A stretch of DNA of 35,700 nucleotides, from positions 1 through 35,700 of the IMG/VR virus record IMGVR_UViG_3300048800_000035. One strand, 5' to 3'. A model generated the notes under the pieces. That model had not been told where the DNA came from, ran no database searches, and saw only the letters and a program-made list of their open reading frames with translations. This DNA comes from a virus. The translations under genes and the position numbers were made by a program. Positions within the stretch are counted from its first letter, which is position 1; each line of letters starts with the position of its first letter. Of the stretch, positions 17,412 through 35,174 are shown piece after piece.

Positions 17412-18190
17412 CCGGGGAAGTCAGGACTCTCACCTACCCCGACGAGTGGTTGGCAGATATTGAGGATGCGCTTGCTCATCCCGAAAAGTTTAGGTTTGCG
17501 GGTTACGACGAACTGACTGAACCGGGTGGTATTGCAAGAGAACAAAGGAACATCGTCGTTCCGGCTTTTCTGGCAGAGCAATTTGATCTGTTTCACAGTC
17601 GCGCAATTTCCCATGCTGTTACCAAGGGACAGCATGAGGCCGCAGCGTTGTTGAACTTCTATATTGTGTTGAAATACAGATTGTGGCGCGGCGGAGAGTT
17701 CCACACCAGGCTTGAGTACATCGAGGAAGTAACCAACCAACCCTTCTCGGTAGCCAGTAGCACGATTGACCACTATTGTAGTCACATTGACGACCTGCTT
17801 GAACAAAAGATGCCACTACGGTTGATCGTCAATGCGCTGGGCATGGCTAAGGGGGCGACGGCGCGAGTTGCGAAGATGGGACAAGAAGTTATCCCAAACG
17901 GTAATCGGGAAGGGTTACTAGAAACAATCTCCGACCTGTCACCCGCCGAGGCGCATCGCTTCCTTGACGATCTGGAACAGAAAGACGTGATAGCTGGCAT
18001 CTCTGCTAACTATGTTGAGGATACCAGTCGGTTGGTCTTGGAGGTTCTTGTGACTCACCCAATGCCACAGGGGGCCAAAGACGCATCGCGGGACAGGTAC
18101 TACATCACCTGTCTGGACTGTCCGAAAGAAGTAGCGATGTGGCTCTGTGAGAAAACACACGTCCGGGCGACACGGCGGGAGTTCAAGTAA
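17408..18190 (+). CDS. Hypothetical protein
   Basis: 260 aa; GTGA and TAATG overlaps. Confidence 0.75.
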   Translation: MTGEVRTLTYPDEWLADIEDALAHPEKFRFAGYDELTEPGGIAREQRNIVVPAFLAEQFDLFHSRAISHAVTKGQHEAAALLNFYIVLKYRLWRGGEFHTRLEYIEEVTNQPFSVASSTIDHYCSHIDDLLEQKMPLRLIVNALGMAKGATARVAKMGQEVIPNGNREGLLETISDLSPAEAHRFLDDLEQKDVIAGISANYVEDTSRLVLEVLVTHPMPQGAKDASRDRYYITCLDCPKEVAMWLCEKTHVRATRREFK

Positions 18191-19476
18191 TGAGAATCCT
18201 TCTACTGGCCGATCACATGTGGAGGGACGTGGCCGGACTCGCCTCAACCCAAGTCCAGATCGAATCAATCTCCGATCACCACGTACAGATTTGCGACATT
18301 CACCTGTTCCCGCAGATGGTGGATGTATTCAAGCCAAATTTGGTAGTGATAAACGGACTCCACGACAGGGGGCGCAATCACTTGGTTGATACGGTCAGAC
18401 GGCGAGGGGGATTGTGCGCTGTACTTGCTTCCGAAGGAAGACCAAATACTGTCGAGCAACTAGACTGGACAGCGAGACAGTGGCCCGCAGAACTATGTGA
18501 CTTATACCTATCTTGGAGCGAGTGGTTTGATAAGGAACTACAAAGCAGGGTGCCATCGGCGGTTACGGGATGCCCTCGTTTCGACCACTACTTCCGTCCG
18601 TTCAATCGGGCCAAGACTATTTCGGAGTGGGGACTTGACCCAGATAAACCGATTGTGACGGTAGCAAGCAGCTTCCCGCAAGCCAAGTTTGCTGATTCAG
18701 GCGGAGACTTCTTGGTACAGGACTGGAAGAACCTCGGCGTATCCCAAATGGATATGTTCAAAGACCCGAGGGCAGTTGCGAAACTGGAAAAGACGGCGCT
18801 TGAAAGATTTTCTGTTTGGATAAGCGCCTTGCACTCCGAGAATCCGGGTATCCAGATTGTCCTAAAGCCACATCCCGCTGAGAACATTCAGTTTTGGCAG
18901 GAGCTTTCGGAATCAATTCACATCGTACTGAGTGACTATATTCAAACGATGTTGTCTATCTCGGACGTGCATGTGGCTAGAGTGGGGTGCCTGACAGTCC
19001 CAGAGGCGTGGTTATTCAATAAGCGTGTTGTACAGTGTCGCATGGGGAATGAAGTAGTAGATGGAGCCAGCGCCGCCGCTTTTGATCTTGGCTATCAAGT
19101 ATCAGACTTGCAAGACTTCCTCTTGGAAACTTCGGCGGGGTTGTCTTTGGGCGATTACGATTCAGATAGCATGTCCGACGACATTCAAGAATACGGGCGA
19201 AAGTATTTAGGGCCGATACCCGATTCCAGCAAGCGCGTAGCCAAGGCGCTGGTCAAGTTACTGGAAGAAAAGAACCCCAAGTTGGCATTTGATTTCACCC
19301 ATGCCGACAACATCGCGGTGAGGCAGTTGCTAGTACGACACGACATTGAACATGCCACTCCGAAGTTTGACCATATCAACCAGTTCTCGAAAGACGTAAT
19401 TCTGACCCGAATTGAAGAGGCCTTGCAGAAGGAGAGGAATTGGAATGAGCAAGAAAACCGACAAGTTGTTTGCTGA
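18190..19476 (+). CDS. Surface carbohydrate biosynthesis protein (GT-B; candidate nonulosonate transferase)
   Basis: DHMWRD, SEG, YLSWS, VTGCPRFD, LKPHPAEN, CLTVPEAW; resembles TIGR04396-type proteins found in nonulosonic acid loci. Confidence 0.75.
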   Translation: MRILLLADHMWRDVAGLASTQVQIESISDHHVQICDIHLFPQMVDVFKPNLVVINGLHDRGRNHLVDTVRRRGGLCAVLASEGRPNTVEQLDWTARQWPAELCDLYLSWSEWFDKELQSRVPSAVTGCPRFDHYFRPFNRAKTISEWGLDPDKPIVTVASSFPQAKFADSGGDFLVQDWKNLGVSQMDMFKDPRAVAKLEKTALERFSVWISALHSENPGIQIVLKPHPAENIQFWQELSESIHIVLSDYIQTMLSISDVHVARVGCLTVPEAWLFNKRVVQCRMGNEVVDGASAAAFDLGYQVSDLQDFLLETSAGLSLGDYDSDSMSDDIQEYGRKYLGPIPDSSKRVAKALVKLLEEKNPKLAFDFTHADNIAVRQLLVRHDIEHATPKFDHINQFSKDVILTRIEEALQKERNWNEQENRQVVC

Positions 19477-19690
19477 ATATGCAGGCAAGGTAACGTCAGA
19501 TGTGTTTCTCGACGGGAACTATTCTGTTGTTTTATTGACGCACAAGAAGGTTCGAGTTATCGGGATTGCGAAAAGAAATCCTGAAAGCGATGTGTATATT
19601 GCGGAGCGTGGTGTTGAGATTGCTACTGCCCGCGCCCTACAAAATCTCGACAAACAAGTTCACCCGCGCCGTTACAAGAAAGTAAAATGA
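19445..19690 (+). CDS. Small phage protein (GIAKRNPESD...GVEIATARA)
   Basis: Motif common in phage hypothetical proteins; start revised to ATG 19445. Confidence 0.7.
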   Translation: MSKKTDKLFAEYAGKVTSDVFLDGNYSVVLLTHKKVRVIGIAKRNPESDVYIAERGVEIATARALQNLDKQVHPRRYKKVK

Positions 19691-20640: not shown

Positions 20641-20652
20641 GAGGATACAGAC

Positions 20653-20817: not shown

Positions 20818-21488
20818 TGTCCCTGTTGGGTTGCAGGTTCGTAAAGTGGGACCACGAGAAAAAGGCGGTTACATCTGTATCCGCCGAGTTTGTTTGGAAT
20901 GGCACGCAGATGCAAGCCACGTGCGATGACGACATGCGGAAGTGGCAAGTCTATTGGACTGGCGTACCCATGTTAACATTCTCAAGTAAGGTTGTTGGCA
21001 ATTCCATTGAAATGACGGCAACCTATCCCGTAGCAGAACAACACTCCGAATCCTGCCCTGCGGAGGTCTGTAAATGCGGGTTCTGGAATCTACATGATCT
21101 TCGTGCTGCCGGCTCAGTCATGCGCGATGAGATTGATGACGGCGTAATGATCCTCACTGAATCAAACGGAAAGATTGTCCTGCATGACAATGGGTTTCGT
21201 TCGGAATACTGCAAGCCCGTTGCCGTAGTTTATCCATTCACCTACAAAATGGAAACTAAATGGTTTATGTCGGAAGATGTGTACCGAACGGTGGGCAGAT
21301 ATGACGCCGGACTGCCAATCGAGGGCAATAGTGTTTGGGTAAAGAAGGTTCGAGTACGAGCCATGTATGGACATACCCAATCTTACGAGTCCATCATGGT
21401 ATCCCTCAAGCTCCGTATCCCCGCTATTGCGCCGTCCGAGGCTACCGATATGCTTCGCAACAGTCGGATGGAGAATAACCTTCTGTGA
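20817..21488 (+). CDS. Hypothetical protein with CxCGFW and HxxGFRSE motifs
   Basis: H..CPAEVCKCGFW and GKIVLHDNGFRSEY. Confidence 0.75.
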   Translation: MSLLGCRFVKWDHEKKAVTSVSAEFVWNGTQMQATCDDDMRKWQVYWTGVPMLTFSSKVVGNSIEMTATYPVAEQHSESCPAEVCKCGFWNLHDLRAAGSVMRDEIDDGVMILTESNGKIVLHDNGFRSEYCKPVAVVYPFTYKMETKWFMSEDVYRTVGRYDAGLPIEGNSVWVKKVRVRAMYGHTQSYESIMVSLKLRIPAIAPSEATDMLRNSRMENNLL

Positions 21489-21787
21489 TAAAACTGGAAA
21501 CGGTTGCAGAACTGCGCGATCACGCCAAACAACCAGCGGCTAAAGAAGCCCTAAATGTTCTGTTGATAAATGGCTTGTCGCCGCAAGAGATGGCTACATA
21601 CGCCTGGATTGCCCTGCACAAAGATATTTCTACAAACGATCTTTGTGAGGCGGTAGGGCGACCACAGAACCACATTGGTAATATCGTATCGAAGTTACTT
21701 CGACTCGGCTTGGTAGTTCGCGTGGTTGATAGCAAAGCGGAGTGGAAATACCTGTATCGCATAGCCGGTTTCACCAATAAGCCTTGA
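21485..21787 (+). CDS. Winged-helix (MarR/TrmB-like) DNA-binding protein
   Basis: GLSPQE...STNDLCEAVG...IVSKLLRLGLVVR...YLYR. Confidence 0.75.
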   Translation: MIKLETVAELRDHAKQPAAKEALNVLLINGLSPQEMATYAWIALHKDISTNDLCEAVGRPQNHIGNIVSKLLRLGLVVRVVDSKAEWKYLYRIAGFTNKP

Positions 21788-21818
21788 TAGAATGGGCGTT
21801 CTATGCTATATTGTGGGC
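21784..21818 (+). promoter_or_regulatory. Sigma70 promoter, leaderless
   Basis: TTGATA-17 nt-TATATT (extended TG)-6 nt-ATG 21819. Confidence 0.75.
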
Positions 21819-22601
21819 ATGGAAAATGACATCATGTATATTTATGCCTTAGTTGATCCGCGAGACAATAAAACAAGATATGTTGGTGTTACCAAGGACC
21901 CCCTAAATAGATTCCGGTCCCACCTGCGAGTTAATCAATCCGTGATGCGTCATGGTAAAAAAAGATGCGAGTGGATTGCGGAACTAAGGGAAGGTAGACT
22001 TGCTCCAAAAATGATTATCCTAGAGGAGTCCGACTGGGATAATTGGCAAAAGGCTGAACAATGGTGGATTCGCCATATGCGCGAGACTGGCTATGATCTT
22101 CTAAATGTCAACAACGGTGGAATCGGTCCAAACTCGATCAGTGATGAAACTAGAGCGAGTATGAGAAAATCACACTTGGGTGTTCACACTAGGCCGATGT
22201 CCGAAACCCATAAGAAGTCTCTTATAGCCAGTCGGAGAAAATTAATACCTACTCAAGTGTCAGAGATAAGAGTCTTGTTGGCAACTCGCGCTGATTTGAA
22301 TACAAAAGAGATTGGGTTGATGTATAACGTTCATTATGGAATAATAAACCAGATAGCATATCACAGGGGTTATTCCGAGTTTACTGATGGCGACGGGTTG
22401 CAAGATGCAATTGATTCCAAGAAACGCTGCAATACCCATCCCCAGAGACGGGGTGATTTAGTTTCGCATGATGTGGTTAGGGAGGTGAGATCATTGGCCG
22501 ATAAGGGGATTAGAATTATAAAAATATCTGAAATGGTTAATATAAAATATTACACAGCATTGAGTATCATTCGTCGCCAAACATATAAGTTGGTGAAGTG
22601 A
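21819..22601 (+). CDS. GIY-YIG homing endonuclease with NUMOD3-like and HTH C-terminal domains
   Basis: YIYALVDPR...RYVGVT...R...H, AEQWWI, LLN..GG, SDETRASMRKSHLG. Confidence 0.9.
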   Translation: MENDIMYIYALVDPRDNKTRYVGVTKDPLNRFRSHLRVNQSVMRHGKKRCEWIAELREGRLAPKMIILEESDWDNWQKAEQWWIRHMRETGYDLLNVNNGGIGPNSISDETRASMRKSHLGVHTRPMSETHKKSLIASRRKLIPTQVSEIRVLLATRADLNTKEIGLMYNVHYGIINQIAYHRGYSEFTDGDGLQDAIDSKKRCNTHPQRRGDLVSHDVVREVRSLADKGIRIIKISEMVNIKYYTALSIIRRQTYKLVK

Positions 22602-23797
22602 AGAAATTTTCTATCTTTTGTGGCCGAGAGCATCATTATAAAAGACTTCACTCGGTAGTATCCGAATTGGAAAACAGGGGATGCGAAACCGGTTTTTATA
22701 TCAGCGACAATGGTTGGAACATTGATCCTGCTAGTGCATATTTGACTAGGTATGGGCAGACATTCAAACACTCGTTGGACTATTATTCACCAGATAGCAC
22801 ACCAGTCGTATCAAACATGGTACAAAAAGCCTTGCTTGGGTTTGGAATACCAGAGTTCGATAATGACTTGTTTGGTTCCATAGACCCCCATTCAATTGTT
22901 TATGCGCTTCGTGAATTCTCTGAATTTCTAGTTGCGACTGACAAGATGCTTGATATAGAAAAACCAGACAGTGTGCTAATTTTGCACTCGAATAATGCGT
23001 GGTGTCGCGCACTTGCCTATCTTTGCTCCGAAAGACAAATTCCAGTTTCGTCTTTTCAAGAGGGGCTACTTCGCAACAGGGATCAAGAGACACAGGGAAA
23101 ACAATCATCGGCGGCCGACTATGTTTCAACACTGTTTGTTTGGTCAGAAGCATCCAGGCAAGCCTACCTTGCCGCTGGCATCCCAGAAGAAAAGATCGTC
23201 GTTACGGGAATGTCACACCTTGACCAGTATCTAACGCTGATTCAAGAGGGAAAGATCAACAAGCCTTACATCAAGGCACAGTTTGGATTCAGGCCTAGCC
23301 AGACGCTTATCACACTCGCCCTGCCACAACTTTCCCGCTTTGACGGCGATGTGAATGTGACGCTTACCCAAATGTCCGAGTGGGCATCTAAGAACTTAGT
23401 CCAACTAGCTATCAGACTCCATCCATTCGAGTCACCAGACTCCGTTATGTCATTGCAAAACGGCATAAAGAATCCGATGGTGAAAGTCATTACGCAGGGA
23501 GAGTTGCCAGAGTTGATTTTAGCGTCGGATGTGGTAGTATCCCAACATTCTACGGCGGCAGTTGAGGCGCTGGCGTTGGGCGTTCCACTGGCGGAGATCG
23601 ACCTGAGTAATTTTGGCGTACTCGAATCTTTGGCCTCTCAGCATGTTGCAATCAGTATCAACAGTGGCGAGTTGGATAAACTTCTCAAGCCGATGGATGG
23701 CATCATTCCGCAGGTGCTTGTGCCGTGGAAAGTAACCAACCTGGGGCAGTTGGACGGACACGCGACGGAACGAATTGTGGATAGGTTGCTGGCGTAA
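22598..23797 (+). CDS. GT-B glycosyltransferase (capsule/sialyltransferase-like; candidate nonulosonate transferase)
   Basis: EKPD, FQEG, FVWSE, IVVTG..HLD, IRLHPFE, SDVVVSQHSTAAVEALALGVP, DGHATERI. Confidence 0.75.
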   Translation: MKKFSIFCGREHHYKRLHSVVSELENRGCETGFYISDNGWNIDPASAYLTRYGQTFKHSLDYYSPDSTPVVSNMVQKALLGFGIPEFDNDLFGSIDPHSIVYALREFSEFLVATDKMLDIEKPDSVLILHSNNAWCRALAYLCSERQIPVSSFQEGLLRNRDQETQGKQSSAADYVSTLFVWSEASRQAYLAAGIPEEKIVVTGMSHLDQYLTLIQEGKINKPYIKAQFGFRPSQTLITLALPQLSRFDGDVNVTLTQMSEWASKNLVQLAIRLHPFESPDSVMSLQNGIKNPMVKVITQGELPELILASDVVVSQHSTAAVEALALGVPLAEIDLSNFGVLESLASQHVAISINSGELDKLLKPMDGIIPQVLVPWKVTNLGQLDGHATERIVDRLLA

Positions 23798-25029
23798 TGC
23801 AGATTAGCCTAATAATTCCAACGCATAATCGAAGCGGGGCGCTCACAAGACATCTTGAAATGCTTGCGCGACAGACACTTGACCCAGCGTTGTTTGAGAT
23901 TGTCGTGGTGCAAGACGGCGTGGATACAATCATGCTCCCCGATATAAAGCGCCGTTCTGAAAAGAACATGCAGTTGAAGGTTGTTGAGTCGGAACACAAG
24001 GGGCCAGCGGCAGCAAGAAACCTCGGCGCGAAGTATGCTGATGGAAACGTGCTATGCTTTGTTGGAGACGACACATTTCCACATCGCAGCTTGCTCTACA
24101 GACATTGGCTACAACATTTCAGCATGGCAAGTAATGGACAAGTAGGGGCGGTACAGGGGTATACGGACTGGTGGGCAGACCTTCCGCCATTAGACTTCGA
24201 GAACTTTTTGTTGGAGTCTGGACTACAAGCAAACTGGTCTAGTCTCAAGAACGACAATGGCACTTGGAAAACAGACGCCAGTGGGTTTTGCCTGACAACT
24301 AACTTCTCGATTGCTAAGTCCGAGTTTGAAAGACTCGGCGGATTCAGCGAAGAGTTTCCCCACGCCGCTTGGGAGGACGTGGAGTTTGGCTACAAGGGAA
24401 CCAAGTTCGGCCTCAAGACTGCTTTTGAACCACAAGCTGTCAATCATCACGCTCACCGGCAGACGTTCGACGGGTATGTTGTAAGGAACCTGAAAGAGGG
24501 GGCGAGTAGGATTATCCTGTCTGGGTTACATCCCGAATCGGCGTGGGGATTGCTTGATCCGAATGCACTTCGGGAAACAAACAGTGGAATGTTTCAAGAG
24601 GCCGTGACTGTGGCACGGGAATTGAACCACGCCCATGCACCTGACATACAGAAACTTCGCAAGGAACGCTGGCAACGAGTCTTACAGTTAGCAAGCCTTG
24701 AAGGGATACGCAGGGGCATTGCCGAGAAGTCTAAGAAGTATCCGGTGTGGCAGGCAATTCAACACCTTCACCTGCAAGAACAGACCCAGCATGTCGTGAC
24801 AACGGCTAGGAACATCGAGACTGGCAATCTTGCTTACGCCGAGACAAGCGCGGAGTGGGCCTTACAAGCCAACATGGACAACTGGGCGCTGTGGATGGTG
24901 AGGGCGGAAGTAAGCAAGGTGATGGGAGATAAAGTCTCGGCGCTGAGATATGCTTCTACTGGAACCAAGTTGGGGCCTGGCGAGGCGTGGCCGATAGAAT
25001 TTATCAAATCAATAAGTGAGGCGCAATGA
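23797..25029 (+). CDS. Family 2 glycosyltransferase with C-terminal TPR-like helices
   Basis: SLIIPTHNR, VVQDG, GPAAARNLGA, FVGDD, GGFSEEF...WEDVEFGY. Confidence 0.92.
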   Translation: MQISLIIPTHNRSGALTRHLEMLARQTLDPALFEIVVVQDGVDTIMLPDIKRRSEKNMQLKVVESEHKGPAAARNLGAKYADGNVLCFVGDDTFPHRSLLYRHWLQHFSMASNGQVGAVQGYTDWWADLPPLDFENFLLESGLQANWSSLKNDNGTWKTDASGFCLTTNFSIAKSEFERLGGFSEEFPHAAWEDVEFGYKGTKFGLKTAFEPQAVNHHAHRQTFDGYVVRNLKEGASRIILSGLHPESAWGLLDPNALRETNSGMFQEAVTVARELNHAHAPDIQKLRKERWQRVLQLASLEGIRRGIAEKSKKYPVWQAIQHLHLQEQTQHVVTTARNIETGNLAYAETSAEWALQANMDNWALWMVRAEVSKVMGDKVSALRYASTGTKLGPGEAWPIEFIKSISEAQ

Positions 25030-25208
25030 CAGCCCTTGAAATGGTTGACGGAAAGTATTACGAGCAGGGAAGTGATGAATATCAATTAGCAATCGAGAAC
25101 ATGGCCAAGGAATACCCACAAGCCAAGACCGAATGTTTGCTGGTAAGACAATTCTGGAACCAGAGGGTAAATCTAGAACGTGCCGTTGTGCTGGCGGGAA
25201 CCAAGTGA
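25026..25208 (+). CDS. Hypothetical protein
   Basis: ATGA and GTGA overlaps. Confidence 0.6.
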   Translation: MTALEMVDGKYYEQGSDEYQLAIENMAKEYPQAKTECLLVRQFWNQRVNLERAVVLAGTK

Positions 25209-25762
25209 CTTGCATTGCTGGTATCGTTGAACCAAGTAAACGTGTTGTTTGGATTGGCGGGGACTCAGCAGCCACAAGCGGGTACGATCTCTCCATTGTC
25301 CTCGACACAAAGGTTTTCTACCACACGGGTACTAATTTCATCGTCGGTTGTTGTGGGAGCGTTAGGGCTACCAACGTCATACGTTACAAAATGACGCCTC
25401 CCGAACCAACCACTGACGACGATATGGCCTACATGGTCACTGGGTTTGTAGAGTCACTCAGGGAATCCCTCAAAGCCGCAGGTAACACCGTAAAGAACGA
25501 CGAAATGGAGTGGACTGGCGTTCAACTTCTAGTTGGTTATCACGCGAAGTTGTTTATGATCGACTCGGACTATCAGGTAAGGGAGGTTGTAACAGGTTAC
25601 GACTCTATCGGCGCTGGGGCCGACCTTGCTCTTGGAGCGTTATATGCCACTGCTGGAACGGGCGCCAAGAAGCGTATGACATTAGCAATGGAAGCGGCGG
25701 CGGTTCACAATACGGCTTGCCGACCACCCTTTTCAATATTGCGTGCGCGGTGGAGCGAATGA
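25205..25762 (+). CDS. HslV/proteasome-beta-like Ntn threonine peptidase
   Basis: GTG 25205 gives (M)TCIAG...GGDS...KVF...GCCG...SIGAGADLALGAL; Thr2 would be the nucleophile. Confidence 0.85.
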   Translation: MTCIAGIVEPSKRVVWIGGDSAATSGYDLSIVLDTKVFYHTGTNFIVGCCGSVRATNVIRYKMTPPEPTTDDDMAYMVTGFVESLRESLKAAGNTVKNDEMEWTGVQLLVGYHAKLFMIDSDYQVREVVTGYDSIGAGADLALGALYATAGTGAKKRMTLAMEAAAVHNTACRPPFSILRARWSE

Positions 25763-25770
25763 ATTGGCAC

Positions 25771-25805
25771 TTCCAAACAAGAAAGATTGGGGATACAATG
25801 AAGAA
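25771..25805 (+). promoter_or_regulatory. Sigma70 promoter, leaderless
   Basis: TTCCAA-17 nt-TACAAT-6 nt-ATG 25806. Confidence 0.65.
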
Positions 25806-26906: not shown

Positions 26907-28039
26907 TGCAAATTTGCCACATATTTGCTGACGGTTTCAGCGAGCTGAATTCCACGCAGTTCCGTGGGATTATATTCATTGATGCTCTCAATCGGGCAGG
27001 GCACTCCGCCAGTCTTATCGGGGTCGAAAATTGGATGAAGGATACTTGTCGCGAAAAATTGGCAAGTGCCGATCTTATTGTTGTTGAGCGCATCCTTGTA
27101 GAAGAGGCGGTCGAAAGAGCGTCGTTTTGGAAGTCGCGTGGCAAGGCGATTGTTATTGACATTGATGATTCATATTCTCTCCTGCAACCATTTGAAGAAT
27201 CGGGGAACCAGGCCGCTAAATTCTGGAAACTCGGAATGGTTGATGTGAATTACGGCAATGGCATTACCTATTCCAAGAAACTTGCCGTATCCCCACTGGA
27301 TCAATTCCGACAGGGCTTGAAATATTGCACTGGACTGACTTCGCCCTCGCGTATTCTGAACGAAGATTGGAAGATGTATGCCCCCACCTGGGTACTGCCT
27401 AACTATTTGGACTCCCGCCGATATTTGCCCCACAAGAATATAAAAATCAAGTCCAGAGCAGATGAATTGATTATTGGATGGGGCGGGAGCATGTCTCATA
27501 AATTGTCGTTCGAGCGTAGTGGTGTAGCAATCGCCCTGCGCCGTGTCCTAAAGAGGCACAAGAATGTCAAATTCATGCTCTGCGGAGATAAAAGGATTCT
27601 CGACATCGTGAAACTTCCGCCGGAGCAAGTGGTATTCAGGAACTATGTGACCTATCAGGAATGGCCTAAGTCTGCCAAGAGTTTTGACATCGGCCTTGCT
27701 CCATTACAGGGCCGCTATGACTCGTCGCGATCCGAGATCAAGGCCGAGGAATACTCGACACTGGCTATTCCATTTGTGGCTACTGGATGTCCAACCTACG
27801 AACGGTTTGAACAGAAGAACATCGGTCTTTACGTACAGGATTCATTGGAGTATGATGCGGCAACTGTTGAGAAGCGTGCTGTAGAATGGGAACAGAAGTT
27901 GGAAGATATTATTACCCACTACGCCGATTACAAACAAAAGGCGCTTGATGATTCAGTCAACCTTGCGCCGTATTGGTGGGTTGATAATAGGGTCCAAGAT
28001 ATTGTAAAGACATACGAAAGCATCATCGCACATGGCTAG
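26906..28039 (+). CDS. GT-B glycosyltransferase (GT4-like, phage type)
   Basis: IDIDD, VLPNYLD, IGWGGSMSH, FDIGLAPL, SEIKAEEYS...IPFVAT. Confidence 0.88.
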   Translation: MQICHIFADGFSELNSTQFRGIIFIDALNRAGHSASLIGVENWMKDTCREKLASADLIVVERILVEEAVERASFWKSRGKAIVIDIDDSYSLLQPFEESGNQAAKFWKLGMVDVNYGNGITYSKKLAVSPLDQFRQGLKYCTGLTSPSRILNEDWKMYAPTWVLPNYLDSRRYLPHKNIKIKSRADELIIGWGGSMSHKLSFERSGVAIALRRVLKRHKNVKFMLCGDKRILDIVKLPPEQVVFRNYVTYQEWPKSAKSFDIGLAPLQGRYDSSRSEIKAEEYSTLAIPFVATGCPTYERFEQKNIGLYVQDSLEYDAATVEKRAVEWEQKLEDIITHYADYKQKALDDSVNLAPYWWVDNRVQDIVKTYESIIAHG

Positions 28040-28985
28040 TATATTGTTGGTCGGCGGAAGCGGCTTCATTGGTAGCCACATTTCACGCTACTTGCTTGAC
28101 AATCCCGAATATGATCGAGTTGTTATCCTATCAAGGGACTGGCACAAACAACTGGCCCTGCGGAAATCTCTAGGTAATCCAGATAAGTTCCGCTGGTTCA
28201 TTGGGGACATTCGGGACAAAGATAGACTCACAAGAGCCTTCAACGGTATTGATGTAATTGTACACGCCGGGGCGATTAAGGATCAAGTGTCGTCAGCTTA
28301 CAATCCTCGTGAAACGATGCTCACAAATGTGGTTGGAACACAGAATGTTATTGACGCGGCGATTGATTGTGGCGTGAAAAAAGTCTTGTTTATTAGCAGT
28401 GATAAGGGCACTGCACCCATTTCTTGCTACGGACACAGTAAGGCTATGGGAGAATCCCTGATTGTTGCTGCCAACACCTATTCACCTAATGGAACCAGGT
28501 TTGCTTCTTGCAGATATGGCAACGTGGTAAATTCCGCATCAAGTGTTTTGCCAATCTTTAGGCAACAGCGCGAAACAGGTACTCTCTCAATTACCGATCC
28601 GCGCTCAACAAGGTTCTGGATTACGCCGGAGCAAGCAGTTTTGTTGATATTTAAAAGCCTTGCAGAGATGCTTGGCGGCGAGGTGTTCGTTCCAAAACTT
28701 CCAGCATCACTGATTATTGACCTCGCTACAGCGGTTGCGCCAGAGGCCAAGATTGATATTATCGGCTTGCGCGTGGCTGAAAAGATTCACGAAATCATGG
28801 TCAACAATGTCGAGGCGGGCAGGACGCAAGACGTTGGATGGGGATACCGCATTGAGCCGGAGTTCAAGTTTTGGGATTCCACCGTAGCCTATCCGTCTGG
28901 TTCCCCTGTGCCGTGGGACTGGACTTACTCCTCTGCCTCGGCCACTCGCCTCACCGTGGAACAACTTCGGGCGATGATCGAATGA
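28032..28985 (+). CDS. pseB: UDP-GlcNAc 4,6-dehydratase (PseB/FlaA1-like)
   Basis: GGSGFIG, LSRD..KQ, IGDIRD, SSDK, YGHSK, RYGNV, TRFWIT, GGEVFVPKLP, EKIHE. Confidence 0.88.
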   Translation: MASILLVGGSGFIGSHISRYLLDNPEYDRVVILSRDWHKQLALRKSLGNPDKFRWFIGDIRDKDRLTRAFNGIDVIVHAGAIKDQVSSAYNPRETMLTNVVGTQNVIDAAIDCGVKKVLFISSDKGTAPISCYGHSKAMGESLIVAANTYSPNGTRFASCRYGNVVNSASSVLPIFRQQRETGTLSITDPRSTRFWITPEQAVLLIFKSLAEMLGGEVFVPKLPASLIIDLATAVAPEAKIDIIGLRVAEKIHEIMVNNVEAGRTQDVGWGYRIEPEFKFWDSTVAYPSGSPVPWDWTYSSASATRLTVEQLRAMIE

Positions 28986-29353
28986 TGAACGCCTTTGAAC
29001 TTACAGCGCAAGAACTTGGAATTACCGTGGCCGAGGTAGAGTGGGCCGTAAAGATTTCAGTTGTACATCGTAAGCATCGCAAGCAACTTAGGGAGAGACA
29101 GCGCATGGCAAATGCTGAGGCGCTGAATAAACACGAATTGGCAGAGGCTAAAGCGAAATATCCCAATCAGTGTTTCTGCATTGAGGAAGGACTTGATCCC
29201 AAGCACGATTGGAATAGCGATAAACTTATCCGCTACGACAAGAAGCGGAGATATACATATCTTGGATTCTCGACCGAGGAGTTCTATGATGATCCGATAT
29301 ATACATGCTCCACTTGCGGCAAGGAATGGCGCATTCGGATAGCAATAGCATGA
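28982..29353 (+). CDS. Hypothetical protein with C-terminal Zn ribbon
   Basis: CFC...YTCSTCGKEW; ATGA overlaps. Confidence 0.7.
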   Translation: MMNAFELTAQELGITVAEVEWAVKISVVHRKHRKQLRERQRMANAEALNKHELAEAKAKYPNQCFCIEEGLDPKHDWNSDKLIRYDKKRRYTYLGFSTEEFYDDPIYTCSTCGKEWRIRIAIA

Positions 29354-29859
29354 TTCACAACTTCATCTGGTGGTTTGACAACACGGCTGACGCTTACACT
29401 CAATCTGTCATCGGAAACTTTACCGCCGATCTGATTCTATTCAGTCTGCCTGCGCTGTGGGTGTTCTTGAGGACTATACGGCAGGGCCGTATCTTGAAGA
29501 ACTTCGGTCGTGAGATGAAGGTAAGTCCAGACGGGCAGGCGGCGGTAAATGCTGTTGACGGTGAGATTCTTATGGCCGGCAAGGGCGGTATTGAGAACCT
29601 CACTCATACTAAGGCGGTCGAAGAAAACCCCCTGTTTGCTTCCAATTCAAAGTGGATCGCCTTTCAGAGGCAGGTTGAGGGGGCGTGGGAAGTGTGGGCA
29701 ATCGACGTTGAAACTCGCAAGACCGTTAGCCTTGGAACGGTTGCCGGAGACAAGCGCCGAATGATTGAGTGGCAACCGAACAACGATCTTGTTATTCAGA
29801 TGGGCGGAACGTACCTAACGGTTTACCAGCAAGAGATTGAAAAGAGACTCAAGCAATAG
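29350..29859 (+). CDS. Membrane-anchored protein with TolB/PD40-like beta-propeller blades
   Basis: Hydrophobic helix LILFSLPALWVFL; VSPDGQ, NPLFASNSKWIAF, WEVWAID. Confidence 0.7.
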   Translation: MIHNFIWWFDNTADAYTQSVIGNFTADLILFSLPALWVFLRTIRQGRILKNFGREMKVSPDGQAAVNAVDGEILMAGKGGIENLTHTKAVEENPLFASNSKWIAFQRQVEGAWEVWAIDVETRKTVSLGTVAGDKRRMIEWQPNNDLVIQMGGTYLTVYQQEIEKRLKQ

Positions 29860-29892
29860 GATTATGTCAATGCAAATTTACAACGGTGAATT

Positions 29893-30975
29893 ATGCAAGG
29901 TGTAATACCGTACTCGACGAGTTTTATCACCGATGAGGACAAGAAGGCGGTGCTGGCCGTTCTGGATTCCAACTGGCTCACTCGCGGCAAGTTGACCAAG
30001 GAACTTGAGGCCAAACTCTGTGAACTGACGGGCAAGAAACATGCCGTAATGGTCAACAATGGGACTACTGCATTGTTGGCGGCGGTTGAGGCAACGCATA
30101 CCTTTGATGTTTATACTCCTGTTCTGACGTTTTCGGCTGTAGCAAATGCAGCGGAGATGGCATCTACCCAGCCTGAAATACATTTCCACGATGTTTGTGA
30201 AGATACGCTTTGTGTAGATTGGAACCAGTCCGCAGGCATTGATGGAACAATAGTCGCAATGGATTATGCGGGCTATCCGAGTCTTAGATCGTGGCCTCCG
30301 CATTATATGGGTGATATTGTTTTGGATGCCGCTCACAGTATCGGGGCAACGATCAACGGTGAACCCAATACTAAGTTTGCCAACATTGCCACTTATTCCT
30401 TCCATCCTACTAAAACGGTAACGTCCGCTGAGGGTGGGGCCATCGTTTGCGATAGTGATAGTATCTATGAGGAATTACTTCTTCTCCGGAACAACGGTAT
30501 TGACATTAAGACTGGATTGCGCGTTACAACCGGGTTGAACTTGCATTGCGACGAACTCTCCTGTGCCCTACTCCTGTCGCAACTAACCCGACTGAAATCC
30601 AACATTGCCCGCAAGCATGAAATCGCCAAGATGTATATGGATAGGTGGAAAGATGATCTGCGCCTCATTCTTCCTGTCTACGATGAGGGACATGCCTTCC
30701 ACCTGTATCCCGTTCGACTGTCTACCGCCGTGAATTGCACCGTTGAGGAATTTCGTGCCAAGTTATTGACTTACGGCGTTGCTAGCCAAAGACATTACCG
30801 ATTGTTGAGCAACATGCCTATCTATGCCTACATGAATTTGGACGGTTGTTACCCCGTAGCAGAACGCGCTTACGAAAGGCTTGTGTCAATCCCCATGTAC
30901 GCGGGCTTAGACGATAACCAAGTTCGCATTGTTATGAACGCAGTAGATGGGAGCTTAGATGCCTACTCAAGATAG
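29893..30975 (+). CDS. pseC: DegT/DnrJ-family PLP sugar aminotransferase (PseC-like)
   Basis: WLTRG, NNGTTAL, LDAAHSIGA, YSFHPTKTVTSAEGG, HLYPV, SIPMY. Confidence 0.85.
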   Translation: MQGVIPYSTSFITDEDKKAVLAVLDSNWLTRGKLTKELEAKLCELTGKKHAVMVNNGTTALLAAVEATHTFDVYTPVLTFSAVANAAEMASTQPEIHFHDVCEDTLCVDWNQSAGIDGTIVAMDYAGYPSLRSWPPHYMGDIVLDAAHSIGATINGEPNTKFANIATYSFHPTKTVTSAEGGAIVCDSDSIYEELLLLRNNGIDIKTGLRVTTGLNLHCDELSCALLLSQLTRLKSNIARKHEIAKMYMDRWKDDLRLILPVYDEGHAFHLYPVRLSTAVNCTVEEFRAKLLTYGVASQRHYRLLSNMPIYAYMNLDGCYPVAERAYERLVSIPMYAGLDDNQVRIVMNAVDGSLDAYSR

Positions 30976-31171
30976 CAGTTGGTTTGTTGCAACGTGGAAA
31001 AGCGATAGTTGGGGGGAAGTGTCTGAATCGTATCTATACAAGGAACAGGCACTCAACTGGCTTGACAACAAGAAGTCGGCGGAGAAGGTAGTTGACTCTG
31101 CTATTCATACTTTTCCAAACTTTCGGACGGCGCAGTATTACCGTAAGCACGGGGAATATTACCACCAATGA
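30959..31171 (+). CDS. Hypothetical protein
   Basis: GGGAG RBS; ATGA overlap with the next gene. Confidence 0.6.
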   Translation: MPTQDSSWFVATWKSDSWGEVSESYLYKEQALNWLDNKKSAEKVVDSAIHTFPNFRTAQYYRKHGEYYHQ

Positions 31172-31866
31172 ATGTAGCGATCATTCCGGCCAGGGGAAAC
31201 AGTAAGTCGGTCGCCCGGAAGAATCTTCGCCCACTGGCGGGCAAGCCCCTTTTACAATGGACGATTGACGCCGCCAAAGAAGCCAACGTATTCGATCACA
31301 TCGTTCTTACTTCCGAGGATGACGAGATATTGAAACTTGGTTTGCGAAACAATATTATGACGCTGGTTCGCCAACCCTGGCTAAGTCAGGATTTCGTGCA
31401 ATCATCGGAGGTTGCGCTTGACGCTTTACGCCAGTTGCAGTTGGCTAATATCTATCCTGATATAGTGACGATCTTGCAACCAACCTCTCCGTTTAGAACG
31501 GCGGAAGATATTGGCGGTGCCGTAGACCTATTCAATAACTGGGACTTGCCGATTGAGAAACGCGGAACCATCATCTCGGCGTATAAAAGCGCCAAGTATC
31601 ATTGGCACGACGAGGGTTGGAACGACAAGCCTCTGTACCACAATCCAGAAAAGAGGTTGGGCCGACAGTGGGAATCTGATATGGGTGTATTTGTGGAACA
31701 GGGGGCAGTCTACATCGTTTCTGCTAATCGTTTCGGCAGAGAAGGTCAGTACAGACTTCCGCCGTACCAGATTTTTGAGATGTCGGAAAGTCATTCGATT
31801 GACCTAGACTCGCCAGAGGAGTTTGAACAAGCGGAACACATGCTTGAAAGAGGACTTGTGAAGTGA
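31168..31866 (+). CDS. CMP-nonulosonic acid synthetase (NeuA/PseF family cytidylyltransferase)
   Basis: IIPARGNSK...KNLRPLAGKPL, LQPTSPFR, RQ, GAVY, SIDLDSPEEF. Confidence 0.93.
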   Translation: MNVAIIPARGNSKSVARKNLRPLAGKPLLQWTIDAAKEANVFDHIVLTSEDDEILKLGLRNNIMTLVRQPWLSQDFVQSSEVALDALRQLQLANIYPDIVTILQPTSPFRTAEDIGGAVDLFNNWDLPIEKRGTIISAYKSAKYHWHDEGWNDKPLYHNPEKRLGRQWESDMGVFVEQGAVYIVSANRFGREGQYRLPPYQIFEMSESHSIDLDSPEEFEQAEHMLERGLVK

Positions 31867-32540
31867 AGATAGCCCTGCTTGCTAAACCGTCCCACGAGTC
31901 AAGTCAGTTGTATCAATACCTGCTTGGGCGAGGGCATGTGGTTTGGCAGACAGATGAGAAAGTCACGGCGAAAGAACTGTCGAGATACGACATTGGGGTC
32001 AGCTGGTTCTACAAATTCATACTTCGCCAACCAGAACTTGATGCGGTGAAACTGGGTATAGCCAACAATCACATAGGTTTTTTGCCCGAGGGCAGAGGGG
32101 CCAACCCGAACATCTGGCCGATAGCGCATCGTATTCAAGCGGGTGTCACGCTTCACTACATGACGGCAGGTGTAGATGAGGGGCCAATCATCGCAAGACA
32201 ACCAATCGAGATAGAGGCAATCGACACTTCCAAGACGCTCTACAACAAACTTGTAGAGGCGCAGTACAATCTATTTCTTATGTGGTGGCCGTCGATTGAA
32301 CTTCTAGGCAACCAAGGACTTCGAGCACCATCTTTCGCCCAGGAAGAGGGAGCTTGGCATACTTACAGGGTCAAAGATACAGAGTGGTTTGACGACCTTG
32401 ATAATCGGTACGGCGACTCTGCAAGGCTTATGATCGACCAACTCAGGGCCAGAACCTTTCCGCCGTACAATGGTTGCTACTTTCGCGATCCAAAGACTGG
32501 CAAGAAGGTCTTTGTGGACGTGTCATTACGCTATGAATAA
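31863..32540 (+). CDS. Sugar-nucleotide N-formyltransferase
   Basis: NNHIGFLPEGRGANP, GVTLHYM..GVDEGPI, LRARTFPPY.G.YF. Confidence 0.9.
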   Translation: MKIALLAKPSHESSQLYQYLLGRGHVVWQTDEKVTAKELSRYDIGVSWFYKFILRQPELDAVKLGIANNHIGFLPEGRGANPNIWPIAHRIQAGVTLHYMTAGVDEGPIIARQPIEIEAIDTSKTLYNKLVEAQYNLFLMWWPSIELLGNQGLRAPSFAQEEGAWHTYRVKDTEWFDDLDNRYGDSARLMIDQLRARTFPPYNGCYFRDPKTGKKVFVDVSLRYE

Positions 32541-33243
32541 TCCGATTTTGTACCTCCACGCCGACTTGAACTGTGGACTGGGCCACAGAAGGCGTCTAGA
32601 AACGCTACAGACGGCTTGGGACGCGCCTAGCGAGTGGTTTGGTACAGATATACCCTCTGTTGCTGGAATTTGCGTGGTGGACGATTATTGCTTCACTGTA
32701 CAATCGTTCCAAGAATTGAAGGCAAACGGGCATTTGGTTGCCTACTTTACCGAGTTCGCGAACGATTATCCAGTGGATATTCTAATCAATCAAAACATCG
32801 GCGCGGAGAAGTTGAAGTACAATGCGCCTATTCAGTTACTCGGCACTCGTTTCTTCATGCTCCGACAGGAATATTTGACTGTCCAGAAGTACGGGCATGG
32901 TGCGATCTTCGATGCTGATTCGGTAGATAGAAAACTGTCACCGCTTGAGTTTGGTCAGACGATGGCGGAAGCTAAGGCTATCATTTGTTCCGCAGGGATT
33001 ACCGCTTACGAGGCACTGTATCTTGAGAAGCCCTTACTGCTGAGAATGTCGGCAGAGAACCAGCGCCGAACGTATGAGGGGTTGATTGATAACGGCTACG
33101 CAATACCATATAATGACATCGCAATAGAAAGGTTGAGTTACGGATGGATTCCAACAGTGAAGTCGGGAAGAAACCTCGTGGACGGCCTCGGGCCGAGTCG
33201 CGTTTGCCAAGCACTCCGCCTGATGTGGGAACAGACCCACTAA
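32533..33243 (+). CDS. pseG: PseG/SpsG-like UDP-sugar hydrolase (compact)
   Basis: AD...GLGH..R, VVDDY, DILINQN, LLG..F.MLR.E, SAGITAYE, AENQ, VDGLGPSRV; start revised to ATG 32533. Confidence 0.8.
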   Translation: MNNPILYLHADLNCGLGHRRRLETLQTAWDAPSEWFGTDIPSVAGICVVDDYCFTVQSFQELKANGHLVAYFTEFANDYPVDILINQNIGAEKLKYNAPIQLLGTRFFMLRQEYLTVQKYGHGAIFDADSVDRKLSPLEFGQTMAEAKAIICSAGITAYEALYLEKPLLLRMSAENQRRTYEGLIDNGYAIPYNDIAIERLSYGWIPTVKSGRNLVDGLGPSRVCQALRLMWEQTH

Positions 33244-33425
33244 TCTACGGTGTGTGGTTGAACAAGCATCTTGATTGGTTGAAGTACACCAGCGGCGAGA
33301 TTGTCTATTCCGATTACCTCGGATTGGCAAGGGCGGAATTGACCTCTTACGAGCGGAACGGCGGAAGTCATGCTAAGGTTATGATTATCGGGGCAGACGG
33401 TGAGCCGCAGGAACTAAATGACTAA
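33225..33425 (+). CDS. Hypothetical protein
   Basis: Fills the gap between pseG and the first synthase; start uncertain. Confidence 0.5.
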   Translation: MGTDPLIYGVWLNKHLDWLKYTSGEIVYSDYLGLARAELTSYERNGGSHAKVMIIGADGEPQELND

Positions 33426-34245
33426 AACATTAATCATCGCTGAAATTGGATCAAGCCACAATTCTTCATTCGACAGGGCTGTTGCTCTGATTGATGCTGC
33501 CGCTGACGCCGGGGCCGACTACGCCAAGTTCCAACTATTCACTGGCGATGATCTTTGGAGTCGAGAGCCGGAACTGACCAACACCCGCAAGGTCGCTTTG
33601 CCCGAGGCGTGGATTCCCAAACTCATGCAACGGTGTGTTGACAAGAAAATTGCCTTTCTGTGTACGCCGTTCTCGCCTCATGCGGTTGAGGTATTGCGGA
33701 AGAACGGCGCAACGTCCTACAAGATTTCGTCGGGTGACATTACCTATCGGCCCCTACTCGAAGCGGTGGCGGAAACCCATCGGCTAGTCTACCTATCGGT
33801 TGGAGCATCCACCTTTGAGGAAATAGACGCCGCACTTGCAATTCTAAAGAACGCCGAGGACGTGGTAATTCTGCATTGTGTTCCAGAATACCCCGCCACG
33901 CCTGCTACTGCTAATATGCGCCGTATCCTAGACCTCATTGAACGCTACAAGTTGGGCAAGAACATTGGAGTTGGTTTGTCGAGCCACCTTCGCGAGTGGT
34001 GGGTTGACGTTGCTGCGGTTCCATTCGGACTCACTTGCATCGAGAAGCACATTGATACGGTCGGAAAGACAGGGCCGGAAGGGGGGCATTCACTTGACCC
34101 ATTTGAGTTTACGCAGTTTGTTACGGCGGTTCGGGAAGTTGAACAAGCGATGGAAGTCCATAAAGAGTTCACTGAGGGCGAAGTCTATGCGCGTCTCAAC
34201 TATCGCAGGAATCCGACATATTGGACTCGTCCACTCCAATCTTGA
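33418..34245 (+). CDS. NeuB/PseI-family nonulosonic acid synthase 1 (no SAF domain)
   Basis: IIAEIGSSH, KFQ, CTPFS, YKISSGDIT, LHCVPEYP, GLSSH, IEKH, HSLDP. Confidence 0.92.
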   Translation: MTKTLIIAEIGSSHNSSFDRAVALIDAAADAGADYAKFQLFTGDDLWSREPELTNTRKVALPEAWIPKLMQRCVDKKIAFLCTPFSPHAVEVLRKNGATSYKISSGDITYRPLLEAVAETHRLVYLSVGASTFEEIDAALAILKNAEDVVILHCVPEYPATPATANMRRILDLIERYKLGKNIGVGLSSHLREWWVDVAAVPFGLTCIEKHIDTVGKTGPEGGHSLDPFEFTQFVTAVREVEQAMEVHKEFTEGEVYARLNYRRNPTYWTRPLQS

Positions 34246-34337
34246 TCCGCTGGACTGGTATCTATTCTTGCATGGGGCTAGAATCGTCCTGTTTATTCTT
34301 GCCATTCTAATTATCAGTTACTTTCTAAAGCGATAAC

Positions 34338-35174
34338 ATGACAAAACTTTGGGCCGAGATTGGGATAAACCACCAAGGCAGCGTTGAGATTGCTATAAAG
34401 ATGATTGACGCCGCCCAACGCGCCGGGGCTGATTTAGTCAAGTTCCAAATGCGCGTTCCAGAACTTGCCGTTCCAAAATCACAGTGGGATAAGCCGAAGG
34501 TTTGGCAAGGCCAAGAAATGACTTACCTAGAATACAAGAAGAAGTTGGAACTATCTCGCGACGATTACTATCGCATAGATCGACATTGCGCCGAGGTGGG
34601 GATAAATTGGACCGCCTCGGTATGGGATTATGAGAGCGCGGTGTTCCTCGTATCCTTTGCCGACCGCATCCCGTTTATCAAAATCCCCAGTGCCAAGTTG
34701 ACTGACCACGTGCTTTTGAAACAAGTATCTCGCGGGTTCAATATGCCGATTGTTCTAAGCACCGGAATGTCAACCGTGGATGAGATTGAGGCAGCAATTG
34801 ATGTAATTCCGTCCGAGAACCTTGTAATGCTCCTGCATTGCAACAGTTCATATCCAGCGTGTGATGCAGAGCAGAACCTAAGCGTGATTGAAACACTCAG
34901 ACAAGACTTCAACTTTCCAGTTGGGTTTTCGTCCCACCACAAGTCGCCATTCCCAGCCCTGTATGCGGCGGCGAGATATGGCGTTCCCGCTGTAGAAACG
35001 CATTTCACATTAGATAGAAGTTGGGAGGGAACCGATCATGCCAGTTCTCTTGAATCTGATGGACTCGAATTACTCGCTAGGGAGTTTCTGCGCATCCCAA
35101 TTGTTCTGGGCGACGGGCAAAAAGTCGTTTACGATTCAGAACTTCCGAGCAGGCTCAAGTTGAGAGGCTACTAA
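34338..35174 (+). CDS. NeuB-family nonulosonic acid synthase 2 (no SAF domain)
   Basis: AEIGINHQG, KFQ, ASVWD, KIPSA, LSTGMS, LHCNSSYP, GFSSH, HFTLDR..EGTDH. Confidence 0.93.
   Translation: MTKLWAEIGINHQGSVEIAIKMIDAAQRAGADLVKFQMRVPELAVPKSQWDKPKVWQGQEMTYLEYKKKLELSRDDYYRIDRHCAEVGINWTASVWDYESAVFLVSFADRIPFIKIPSAKLTDHVLLKQVSRGFNMPIVLSTGMSTVDEIEAAIDVIPSENLVMLLHCNSSYPACDAEQNLSVIETLRQDFNFPVGFSSHHKSPFPALYAAARYGVPAVETHFTLDRSWEGTDHASSLESDGLELLAREFLRIPIVLGDGQKVVYDSELPSRLKLRGY

Follow-up and report, generated by a model that had tools for sequence, protein, structure and literature searches.

A predicted pathway for a pseudaminic acid-like sugar and a set of glycosyltransferase-like proteins encoded by an uncultured tailed phage

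Nonulosonic acids are surface sugars of bacteria and animals that take part in mimicry, motility and immune evasion. In Campylobacter and Helicobacter, CMP-activated pseudaminic acid (CMP-Pse) is made in six chemical steps by PseB, PseC, PseH, PseG, PseI and PseF, with PseJ in a variant of the route. Here we describe an island of sugar genes (positions 18190-35174) at the left end of the 99,998-bp viral genome IMG/VR IMGVR_UViG_3300048800_000035 (termed G000; CheckV completeness ~99%), in which the same six steps are represented. The stretch of DNA analysed, referred to as the window, comprises bases 1-35700 of this record. Compared to the bacterial pathway, the island is phage-encoded, its proteins score below the curated cut-offs of the family models, its two synthases lack a SAF domain and score as NeuB, and its PseG-like gene is missing in one relative (L017). 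The system is a case of glycosylation encoded by a virus and drawn from a bacterial pathway already known; it is set apart by two BFO_1060/TagF-like proteins, three further glycosyltransferase (GT) proteins and the lack of Maf.

Some phages put hexoses, heptose or Kdo on 5-hydroxymethylcytosine (5hmC), and mycobacteriophages with glycosylated virions reportedly rely on two or three GT genes and on nucleotide sugars of the host. The virion glycosylation of mycobacteriophages (Freeman et al. 2023, Cell Host Microbe, PMC10527164, cited in PMC12582341) resembles the present island in its use of soluble phage GTs without export genes and in the outcome proposed here, capsid or tail proteins coated with glycan; the island differs in that it also encodes an entire nonulosonate pathway, along with five proteins that are GT-like. 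The gene clusters for glycan hypermodification of phage DNA (a C5-methyltransferase with 5mYOX, or ThyS, plus a GT) likewise combine GT-A and GT-B enzymes with cytidylyltransferase and epimerase genes and may append the ulosonic acid Kdo (bioRxiv 10.1101/2023.12.21.572611). By contrast, G000 is without C5-methyltransferase, 5mYOX and ThyS, and no similarity to the organisation of these clusters was found. In Tannerella forsythia, Tanf_01245 (whose counterpart in strain 92A2 is BFO_1060) is a genetically validated transferase of a Pse derivative that has no transmembrane segment, carries D/E-D/E-G and HP motifs and is TagB-like (PMC5420450). The transferases of Pse/Leg derivatives Tanf_01245, TFUB4_00887 and BFO_1060 share with the phage proteins a TagB/TagF-like GT-B type without transmembrane segments and a location beside a nonulosonate pathway (PMC5420450), whereas the phage has two paralogues (at 133 and 70 bits) and no general O-glycosylation genes (flippase, oligosaccharyltransferase). 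Maf-type (PF01973) flagellin glycosylation also pairs a nonulosonate pathway with cytoplasmic transfer in the absence of an exporter; unlike these systems, neither G000 nor its relative G001 has a PF01973 protein, and transfer would rest on the BFO_1060/TagF-like GT-B proteins. No description of a phage with a complete nonulosonate pathway and transferases was found in the literature, in agreement with the first-pass annotation of the window, in which no characterised phage could be named that both synthesises and transfers a nonulosonic acid of its own.

Pathway genes were assigned by Pfam and NCBIfam scans and by sequence searches of the PDB, with the TIGR models carrying curated equivalog cut-offs. 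By this approach, all gene classes named in the first-pass annotation were located in the island (Table 1), and its proposal of a seemingly complete pseudaminic-type pathway was upheld with a formyltransferase in place of PseH. PseB, PseC, PseF and PseG were the top models for the four proteins so named, with all scores below the cut-offs. The PseB-like protein scored 321 bits with TIGR03589 (cut-off 407.75) compared to 183 with FnlA and 54 with LegB, and the PseC-like protein scored 229.5 bits with TIGR03588 (cut-off 423.5) compared to 133 with ArnB and 120 with LegC. The sole cytidylyltransferase of the island was best matched by the PseF model TIGR03584 (5.6e-25, 88 bits; cut-off 205.7). 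The PseG-like protein, which has a GLGH motif at its N-terminus, matched TIGR03590 (4.6e-15, 56 bits; cut-off 153.55) and gave no match in the PDB sequence search. No acetyltransferase-family match for the PseH-type step was detected among the island proteins scanned with Pfam; N-acylation of the C4 amine is represented instead by the formyltransferase, of which the closest solved relative is PseJ (6ci2/6ci4, 4e-20).

The PseI step is represented by two NeuB-family synthases, NeuB1 and NeuB2, which are 31% identical and both end before the SAF domain. NeuB1 scored 195 bits with NeuB_NnaB and 159 with PseI (TIGR03586), and NeuB2 scored 217 and 140, respectively, all below the cut-offs. No PHROGs family matched NeuB1 at E <=0.001. 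NeuB2, which has an extra insertion behind the KFQ motif, matched SpsE (1vli) and the 290-aa 6ncs in the PDB and was 36-38% identical to the SAF-less NeuBs of two uncultured phages, MH319754.1 and LR756508.1, which were its only protein-search matches. No PseB or PseC gene was found near the NeuB gene of either phage. In MH319754.1 (L018), a Kyanoviridae-like marine virus, the SAF-less NeuB adjoins a perosamine-synthetase-like aminotransferase (10850-12807), and LR756508.1 (L019), a 484-kb phage genome, encodes a SAF-less NeuB of the NeuB2 type (11908-12807).

In the known route to pseudaminic acid, PseC introduces the C4 amine that ends up as N7 of the nonulosonate. Given this correspondence and the PseJ-like enzyme of the island, the predicted product is a CMP-activated 5-acetamido-7-formamido pseudaminic-type acid; PseJ is known to complete the biosynthetic route to Pse5Ac7Fo (PMC11040635). 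Production of a CMP-Pse5Ac7Fo-like sugar is thus a well-supported prediction from the sequence, and the sialic-acid-like nine-carbon sugar is probably 7-N-formyl pseudaminic acid.

Five proteins of GT fold were found in the island, two of which (GT-B protein 1 and GT-B protein 2) are candidate CMP-nonulosonate transferases. GT-B protein 1 matched NF046086, the NCBIfam model of the BFO_1060 family (1.2e-38, 133 bits; cut-off 200), over nearly its full length, as well as TIGR04396 (1.6e-27), and its atlas structure had a TM score of 0.81 to clusters of 'surface carbohydrate biosynthesis protein'. It is homologous to the GT-B protein 2 family (hhalign 97%), and N-E-G and H228-P229 motifs are invariant in 3 homologues. 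GT-B protein 2 matched NF046086 (1.9e-19, 70 bits; cut-off 200), TIGR04396 (2.5e-17) and WecB (2.9e-5), and 24 homologues all keep its residues E155-G156 and H275-P276. Thus, both proteins have the sialyltransferase-type D/E-D/E-G and HP motifs, the GT-B fold and the lack of a transmembrane segment that mark the BFO_1060 type, and by the 200-bit rule of NF046086 they are distant relatives, not members.

Of the remaining three proteins of GT fold, the GT2 protein (EpsD-like, 4.6e-39; phrog_2456) is present in all relatives, as are homologues of the GT1/GT4-like GT-B protein (36-72% identity) and of the 317-aa GT-B-fold protein. The latter had no match in Pfam, NCBIfam or PHROG and belongs to an unnamed family with 84 representatives in 1.8 billion proteins. 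Its Foldseek matches were LpxB, CalG3, MurG and 2-epimerases (E down to 3e-8), the atlas comparison gave a TM score of 0.56 to LpxB-like models, and profile-profile comparison found no kinship with the two BFO-like GT-B families, its placement as GT-B being by fold alone. The 317-aa protein folds confidently as a compact GT-B and may act as a transferase or else hydrolyse a nucleotide sugar. The five glycosyltransferases counted in the first-pass annotation can thus be kept as five GT-fold proteins; assignment as GT at the sequence level was obtained for three of the five, and some of the GT-B-fold proteins of the island may not be transferases.

GT-B protein 2 also bears on another assignment of gene function, one that would fit any acceptor, in which this protein is a NeuC/LegG-like hydrolysing 2-epimerase that feeds NeuB2 for synthesis of a second nonulosonate of the Neu5Ac or Leg type. 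The AlphaFold2 (AF2) model of GT-B protein 2 (pLDDT 91.3) was nearest to NeuC and other UDP-GlcNAc 2-epimerases among solved folds (Z 22-26; for NeuC, Z 25.7 and rmsd 3.6 across 332 residues), its homologues are labelled epimerases by JGI, and a weak match to Epimerase_2 was detected (27.4 bits, not reaching the Pfam cut-off of 30.6). Two divergent synthases beside a single PseB/PseC route, and the likeness of NeuB2 to NeuBs of phages with no PseB or PseC nearby, are in keeping with a second sugar. However, TagF and TarL were almost as high structurally (Z 21.6 and 21.5), the family profile matched the TagF-like polymerase TarL best (1.3e-10, with an archaeal epimerase at 8.4e-10), and the scores with the BFO_1060-type models were far stronger than that with WecB. 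The paralogue, GT-B protein 1, fits the BFO_1060 model nearly in full. In addition, alignment of the family with two epimerases showed Ser or Asn in place of the Asp in the GDT motif, and Gly-Lys in place of the PEE glutamates; in the E. coli enzyme, this Asp and these Glu residues are catalytic. Since these residues are not kept, a transferase is preferred over a NeuC-like enzyme, and the two-sugar assignment is considered improbable.

As one conserved module, the five transferases and the nonulosonate genes recur in other phage and metagenome contigs (the relatives L015/L017, L016, L021, G001 and L023-L026), with protein identities of 23-84%. The gene order of helicase, GTs, PseB, PseC, cytidylyltransferase, formyltransferase and both NeuBs is kept in L015/L017 (45-84% identity of the island proteins), L016 (50-60%) and L021 (30-44%). 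The conserved unit comprises four GT-B proteins, GT2, PseB, PseC, the cytidylyltransferase, NeuB and several small proteins, and the N-acyl tailoring gene varies. In G001 (L022; IMG/VR, 105 kb, 85% complete), of which the capsid (56% identity), portal (50%) and tail proteins (29-55%) are related to those of G000, the island is stretched to ~30 kb by insertions, has no formyltransferase homologue and carries an ATP-grasp gene (L030:9074-10069; PDB 2pn1, 6e-27). The PseG-like protein of G001 is 35% identical to that of G000, and the homologue of the 317-aa GT-B gene lies in two pieces (23887-24495 and 25158-25499) ~660 bp apart, which suggests interruption by an insertion, intron or mobile element. 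The insertions include an IS200/IS605 TnpB gene (37247-38431, or L030:1248-2432; PDB 8bf8, 5e-90), which gives no host name because insertion sequence elements of this kind are too mobile. In the distant lineage L023-L026 (23-36% identity), a compact module lies on the same strand as the Phage_portal gene, four small open reading frames (ORFs) downstream of it, and is therefore placed in the head-gene block.

GT-B protein 2 had 26 relatives in a collection of 5.8 billion proteins, all of them metagenomic. When 185,579 species genomes were pattern-scanned with the alignment of this family, no relative was confirmed, and at the DNA level the island had no megablast match among 50,697 phage records. 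As a set, the transferases seem to be confined to phages and metagenomes.

The viral nature of the contig, as originally proposed, was confirmed. Outside the window and on the minus strand, G000 encodes a major head protein (57354-58853; phrog_10, 5e-65), portal and tape-measure proteins and a prohead protease, and with the replication genes in the window these structural genes identify the contig as a tailed phage. An 883-aa protein with a LAGLIDADG-endonuclease intein (71350-74001, minus strand; PF14890 5e-17, PF14528 3e-14) aligns to its G001 homologue in two adjoining pieces (58% and 49% identity) and is probably the large terminase, since the homologue adjoins the portal gene. Upstream of the island, the window encodes an RNA ligase, a GH25 lysin, a primase-like protein and an N6/N4 DNA methylase, as well as a DnaB-like helicase and a Sak4/AAA_24 protein; the island directly follows these phage-type replication genes (primase-, DnaB- and Sak4-like), as had been noted earlier. 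The phage may be temperate, given a tyrosine integrase gene on the right arm.

In the reading we favour, the island would serve as a phage-borne glycan factory. The PseB-, PseC-, PseJ- and PseG-like enzymes would convert host UDP-GlcNAc to a 2-acetamido-4-formamido-2,4,6-trideoxy-hexose, which one or both of the NeuB synthases without SAF domain would condense with phosphoenolpyruvate, and the single cytidylyltransferase would activate the product to a CMP-Pse5Ac7Fo-like donor. The two BFO_1060/TagF-like GT-B proteins are predicted to use the CMP-activated sugar, with GT2, the GT1/GT4-like GT-B protein and the 317-aa GT-B protein adding the remaining residues of a defined oligosaccharide. During infection, all steps would take place in the host cytoplasm, with no lipid-carrier or export step encoded by the phage, and the glycan would be put on proteins of the phage particle itself (capsid, tail or fibres), either ahead of assembly or in its course, to give particles coated with acid sugar. 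Virion proteins, also named as the likeliest acceptor in the first-pass annotation, are still our best guess, at a probability just short of even. This acceptor has circumstantial support in the lack of phage lipid-carrier and export functions, in the lack of enzymes that would make a handle on DNA, in the apparent restriction of the transferase set to phages and metagenomes and in the position of the module behind the portal gene in L023-L026, and glycosylated mycobacteriophage virions offer a precedent by analogy.

Absences were determined by six-frame HMM searches of the whole G000 genome and, for membrane proteins, by hydropathy scan. No initiating transferase of the PF02397 (Bac_transf) or PF00953 (Glycos_transf_4, WecA-type) family, no PF01943 (Polysacc_synt, Wzx-type) flippase and no PF00005 (ABC_tran) protein was detected, and no multi-pass membrane protein was found genome-wide except small holin-like ORFs. 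Thus, the lack of export machinery first noted for the window extends to the full 100 kb. The functions of initiating transferase, flippase or ABC transporter could be supplied by host genes. The further argument that GTs without transmembrane segments imply a cytoplasmic acceptor did not survive: Leloir transferases that build glycans linked to undecaprenyl pyrophosphate are also soluble or peripheral, and soluble GTs are normal in Wzy- and ABC-dependent pathways. BFO_1060 has no transmembrane segment, and yet S-layer glycoproteins, which are exported, require it for their glycan (PMC5420450); host machinery could therefore export a phage product.

These considerations bear on remodelling of the host envelope, by which the soluble phage GTs would extend a host undecaprenyl-phosphate-linked glycan on the inner side of the membrane, for export by the flippase, polymerase, and ligase or oligosaccharyltransferase of the host. 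The altered lipopolysaccharide, capsule or S-layer glycan would bring lysogenic conversion, superinfection exclusion or less readsorption of progeny. This alternative stays alive because of the integrase encoded elsewhere in the genome, and prophage genes are known to alter nonulosonate-containing capsules of Acinetobacter (PMC12053666, PMC6586298). However, the phage encodes none of the initiating or export functions above and no polymerase, and the island is not a moron beside an attachment site but lies within a replication operon riddled with homing endonucleases, ~47 kb from the integrase, of which no homologue was found in the 85%-complete G001. The location of the module behind the portal gene in L023-L026 and an investment of 14 genes, far above that of known conversion cassettes, likewise speak against remodelling of the envelope, which we consider rather unlikely.

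Hypermodification of DNA, in which the nonulosonate glycan would be put on bases of the phage genome against restriction, has in its favour the position of the island directly behind replication genes and an N6/N4 DNA methylase gene within the island of L016 and G001. 5hmC has been shown to receive ulosonic (Kdo), uronic and further sugars from phage GT-A and GT-B enzymes, with addition of Kdo and heptose reported (bioRxiv 10.1101/2023.12.21.572611). However, no PF00303 thymidylate-synthase-like hydroxymethylase, PF12851 TET/JBP protein or PF00145 C5-methyltransferase was detected in six frames of the genome, nor was PolA, and the methylase that is present is of the N6/N4 type, which yields no hydroxyl handle. 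These absences are weighty because the routes of phage DNA glycosylation in the sources consulted all start at a hydroxymethylated base. The five transferases also exceed the one or two per pathway described in this preprint (bioRxiv 10.1101/2023.12.21.572611). With all known handle-making enzymes absent, the DNA alternative raised in the first-pass annotation is judged very improbable; the probability left over by the three acceptors goes to something else.

Several findings weigh against the favoured reading of virion glycosylation by a Pse-type sugar. With regard to the pathway, all equivalog-level NCBIfam scores of the island proteins are under the cut-offs, so that the proteins are divergent homologues and not orthologues by the rule of NCBI; neither NeuB has PseI as its top model or the C-terminal SAF domain of PseI; and the PseG-like gene is missing from the close relative L017, in which the rest of the pathway is kept. 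In L017, NUDIX and cREC_REC genes (region 10696-11775; cREC_REC being a cyclic-phosphate processing receiver domain by its Pfam description) lie between the formyltransferase and NeuB1 in place of the PseG-like gene, and UDP removal may be by the NUDIX protein or the 317-aa GT-B protein. With regard to the acceptor, the island of G000 follows replication genes on the strand opposite the structural genes, and its position in this genome is therefore no pointer to the virion. The structural proteins were without striking Ser/Thr-rich tails in a scan of virion proteins for Ser/Thr-rich segments, no transferase of the island carries a recognisable protein-targeting domain, and no match to Maf (PF01973) was obtained in G000 or G001 even at E up to 1. 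The prototype BFO_1060 itself, as noted, is needed for a glycan of exported proteins (PMC5420450).

Taken together, we propose tentatively that large tailed phages of an uncultured lineage make a CMP-activated 7-N-acyl Pse-type sugar and build a nonulosonate oligosaccharide on their virion proteins in the cytoplasm by use of a phage-specific set of five soluble transferases, of which the two TagF/BFO_1060-like enzymes would form a new, Maf-unrelated class of protein-directed nonulosonate transferases; as a whole, this statement is somewhat doubtful. A bacterial virus with an entire pathway and a dedicated transferase set would widen the scope of virus-encoded glycosylation whichever the target (virion, envelope or DNA). 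If virions are coated, this would have a bearing on how the phage adsorbs, on its stability and aggregation, and on whether immune systems or grazers recognise it. The phage proteins also offer a way into the TIGR04396/BFO_1060 family, which is poorly characterised and has so far been backed by genetic evidence only, and the SAF-less synthases, the PseJ-type formyltransferase and the candidate Pse transferases are potential compact enzymes for chemoenzymatic use.

Table 1. Features of the sugar island and of the surrounding genome (positions in IMGVR_UViG_3300048800_000035; the window ends at 35700).
Feature	Position	Strand	Evidence and remarks
DUF6745 protein	2-1015	+	4e-56; first ORF, open at contig start
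HNH-AP2 endonuclease	3474-3950	-	
RNA ligase	9843-11114	+	phrog_968, 5e-59
GT-B protein 1, 428 aa, candidate CMP-nonulosonate transferase	18190-19476	+	distant BFO_1060/TIGR04396 type
GT-B-fold protein, 317 aa	19687-20640	+	AF2 pLDDT 90.7; all Foldseek matches GT-B
Conserved protein, 223 aa	20817-21488	+	no family match; paralogues in relatives
Small winged-helix protein, TrmB/MarR-like	21485-21787	+	PF01978 3e-7
GIY-YIG homing endonuclease	21792-22601	+	PF01541 2e-7; insertion, outside pathway
GT-B protein 2, 399 aa, candidate CMP-nonulosonate transferase	22598-23797	+	BFO_1060/TagF-like
GT2 (GT-A) glycosyltransferase, 410 aa	23797-25029	+	PF00535 2.9e-15; C-terminal extension of ~160 aa
HslV/Ntn-hydrolase-like protein	25133-25762	+	phrog_1040 'peptidase HslV family' 1e-18
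HTH-HNH endonuclease	25743-26906	+	PF01844 1.9e-5; mobile insertion
GT1/GT4-like GT-B protein, 377 aa	26906-28039	+	PF13692 1.8e-4; phrog_7162 glycosyltransferase 1.1e-14
PseB-like inverting UDP-GlcNAc 4,6-dehydratase	28032-28985	+	PF02719 (Polysacc_synt_2) 2e-67
Conserved protein between pseB and pseC	29305-29859	+	weak PD40/TolB-propeller matches only
PseC-like PLP aminotransferase	29893-30975	+	PF01041 (DegT) 3.7e-64
CMP-nonulosonate synthetase, PseF/NeuA-type cytidylyltransferase	31168-31866	+	PF02348 (CTP_transf_3) 1.7e-15, above cut-off
PseJ-like sugar N-formyltransferase	31863-32540	+	PF00551 3e-13 and PF18216 3.4e-13
PseG-like UDP-sugar hydrolase	32533-33243	+	ORF opens at 32470; likely start M22 at 32533
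Small conserved protein, 93 aa, overlapping NeuB1 start	33144-33425	+	no family match
NeuB-family synthase 1 (NeuB1), 275 aa	33418-34245	+	PF03102 8.4e-54 (183 bits); without SAF domain
NeuB-family synthase 2 (NeuB2), 278 aa	34338-35174	+	PF03102 8.7e-63 (212 bits); without SAF domain
RtcB	35174-36370	+	extends beyond window end
NUMOD3-HNH endonuclease	52482-53429	+	
Radical-SAM protein	77528-78562	-	right arm
Tyrosine integrase	82536-83621	-	PF00589 2e-31; right arm

The homing-endonuclease load of the genome is unusually high (HNH-AP2, GIY-YIG, HTH-HNH and NUMOD3-HNH types), and the sugar island itself is broken by the GIY-YIG and HTH-HNH genes. In the relatives, other endonucleases occupy the same intergenic sites of the island (LAGLIDADG and HNH_3 in L015, L016 and L021). 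The site of the GIY-YIG gene holds an HNH gene in L016, and the HTH-HNH endonuclease is kept in L017 with different endonucleases at that site in L016 and L021. Three tRNA genes were found in the genome. Counts of predicted promoters and terminators over 16-35.7 kb were close to those of shuffled expectation, and hence no statement is made on the timing of expression. A search for the host by way of prophages in 185k species genomes gave no relative of the capsid protein; the nearest isolate relatives of this protein, from Burkholderia and gut Firmicutes phages, are only ~35% identical.

Several small proteins of the island are conserved. The 223-aa protein belongs to a family of only 4 proteins in the 5.8-billion-protein collection and has homologues at the matching position in L015 and L016, and the winged-helix protein encoded beside it is 81% and 61% identical to its homologues in L015 and L016, respectively. 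Homologues of the HslV-like protein in L017 (71%) and L016 (50%) begin at residue 25, and the protein encoded between pseB and pseC has homologues in L017 (63%) and G001 (37%). An ORF at 28871-29353 is probably spurious, as its frame differs from that of the PseB-like gene, the end of which it overlaps, and as it gave no BLAST match to the proteins of the relatives. The 93-aa protein that overlaps the NeuB1 start was considered as a detached SAF domain and rejected, its sequence having no such pattern and no family match; it is 73% identical across 64 aa to the product of L017:11521-11775. The RNA ligase and RtcB genes flank the region in G000, and in G001 the RtcB gene is located elsewhere, at 419-1585.

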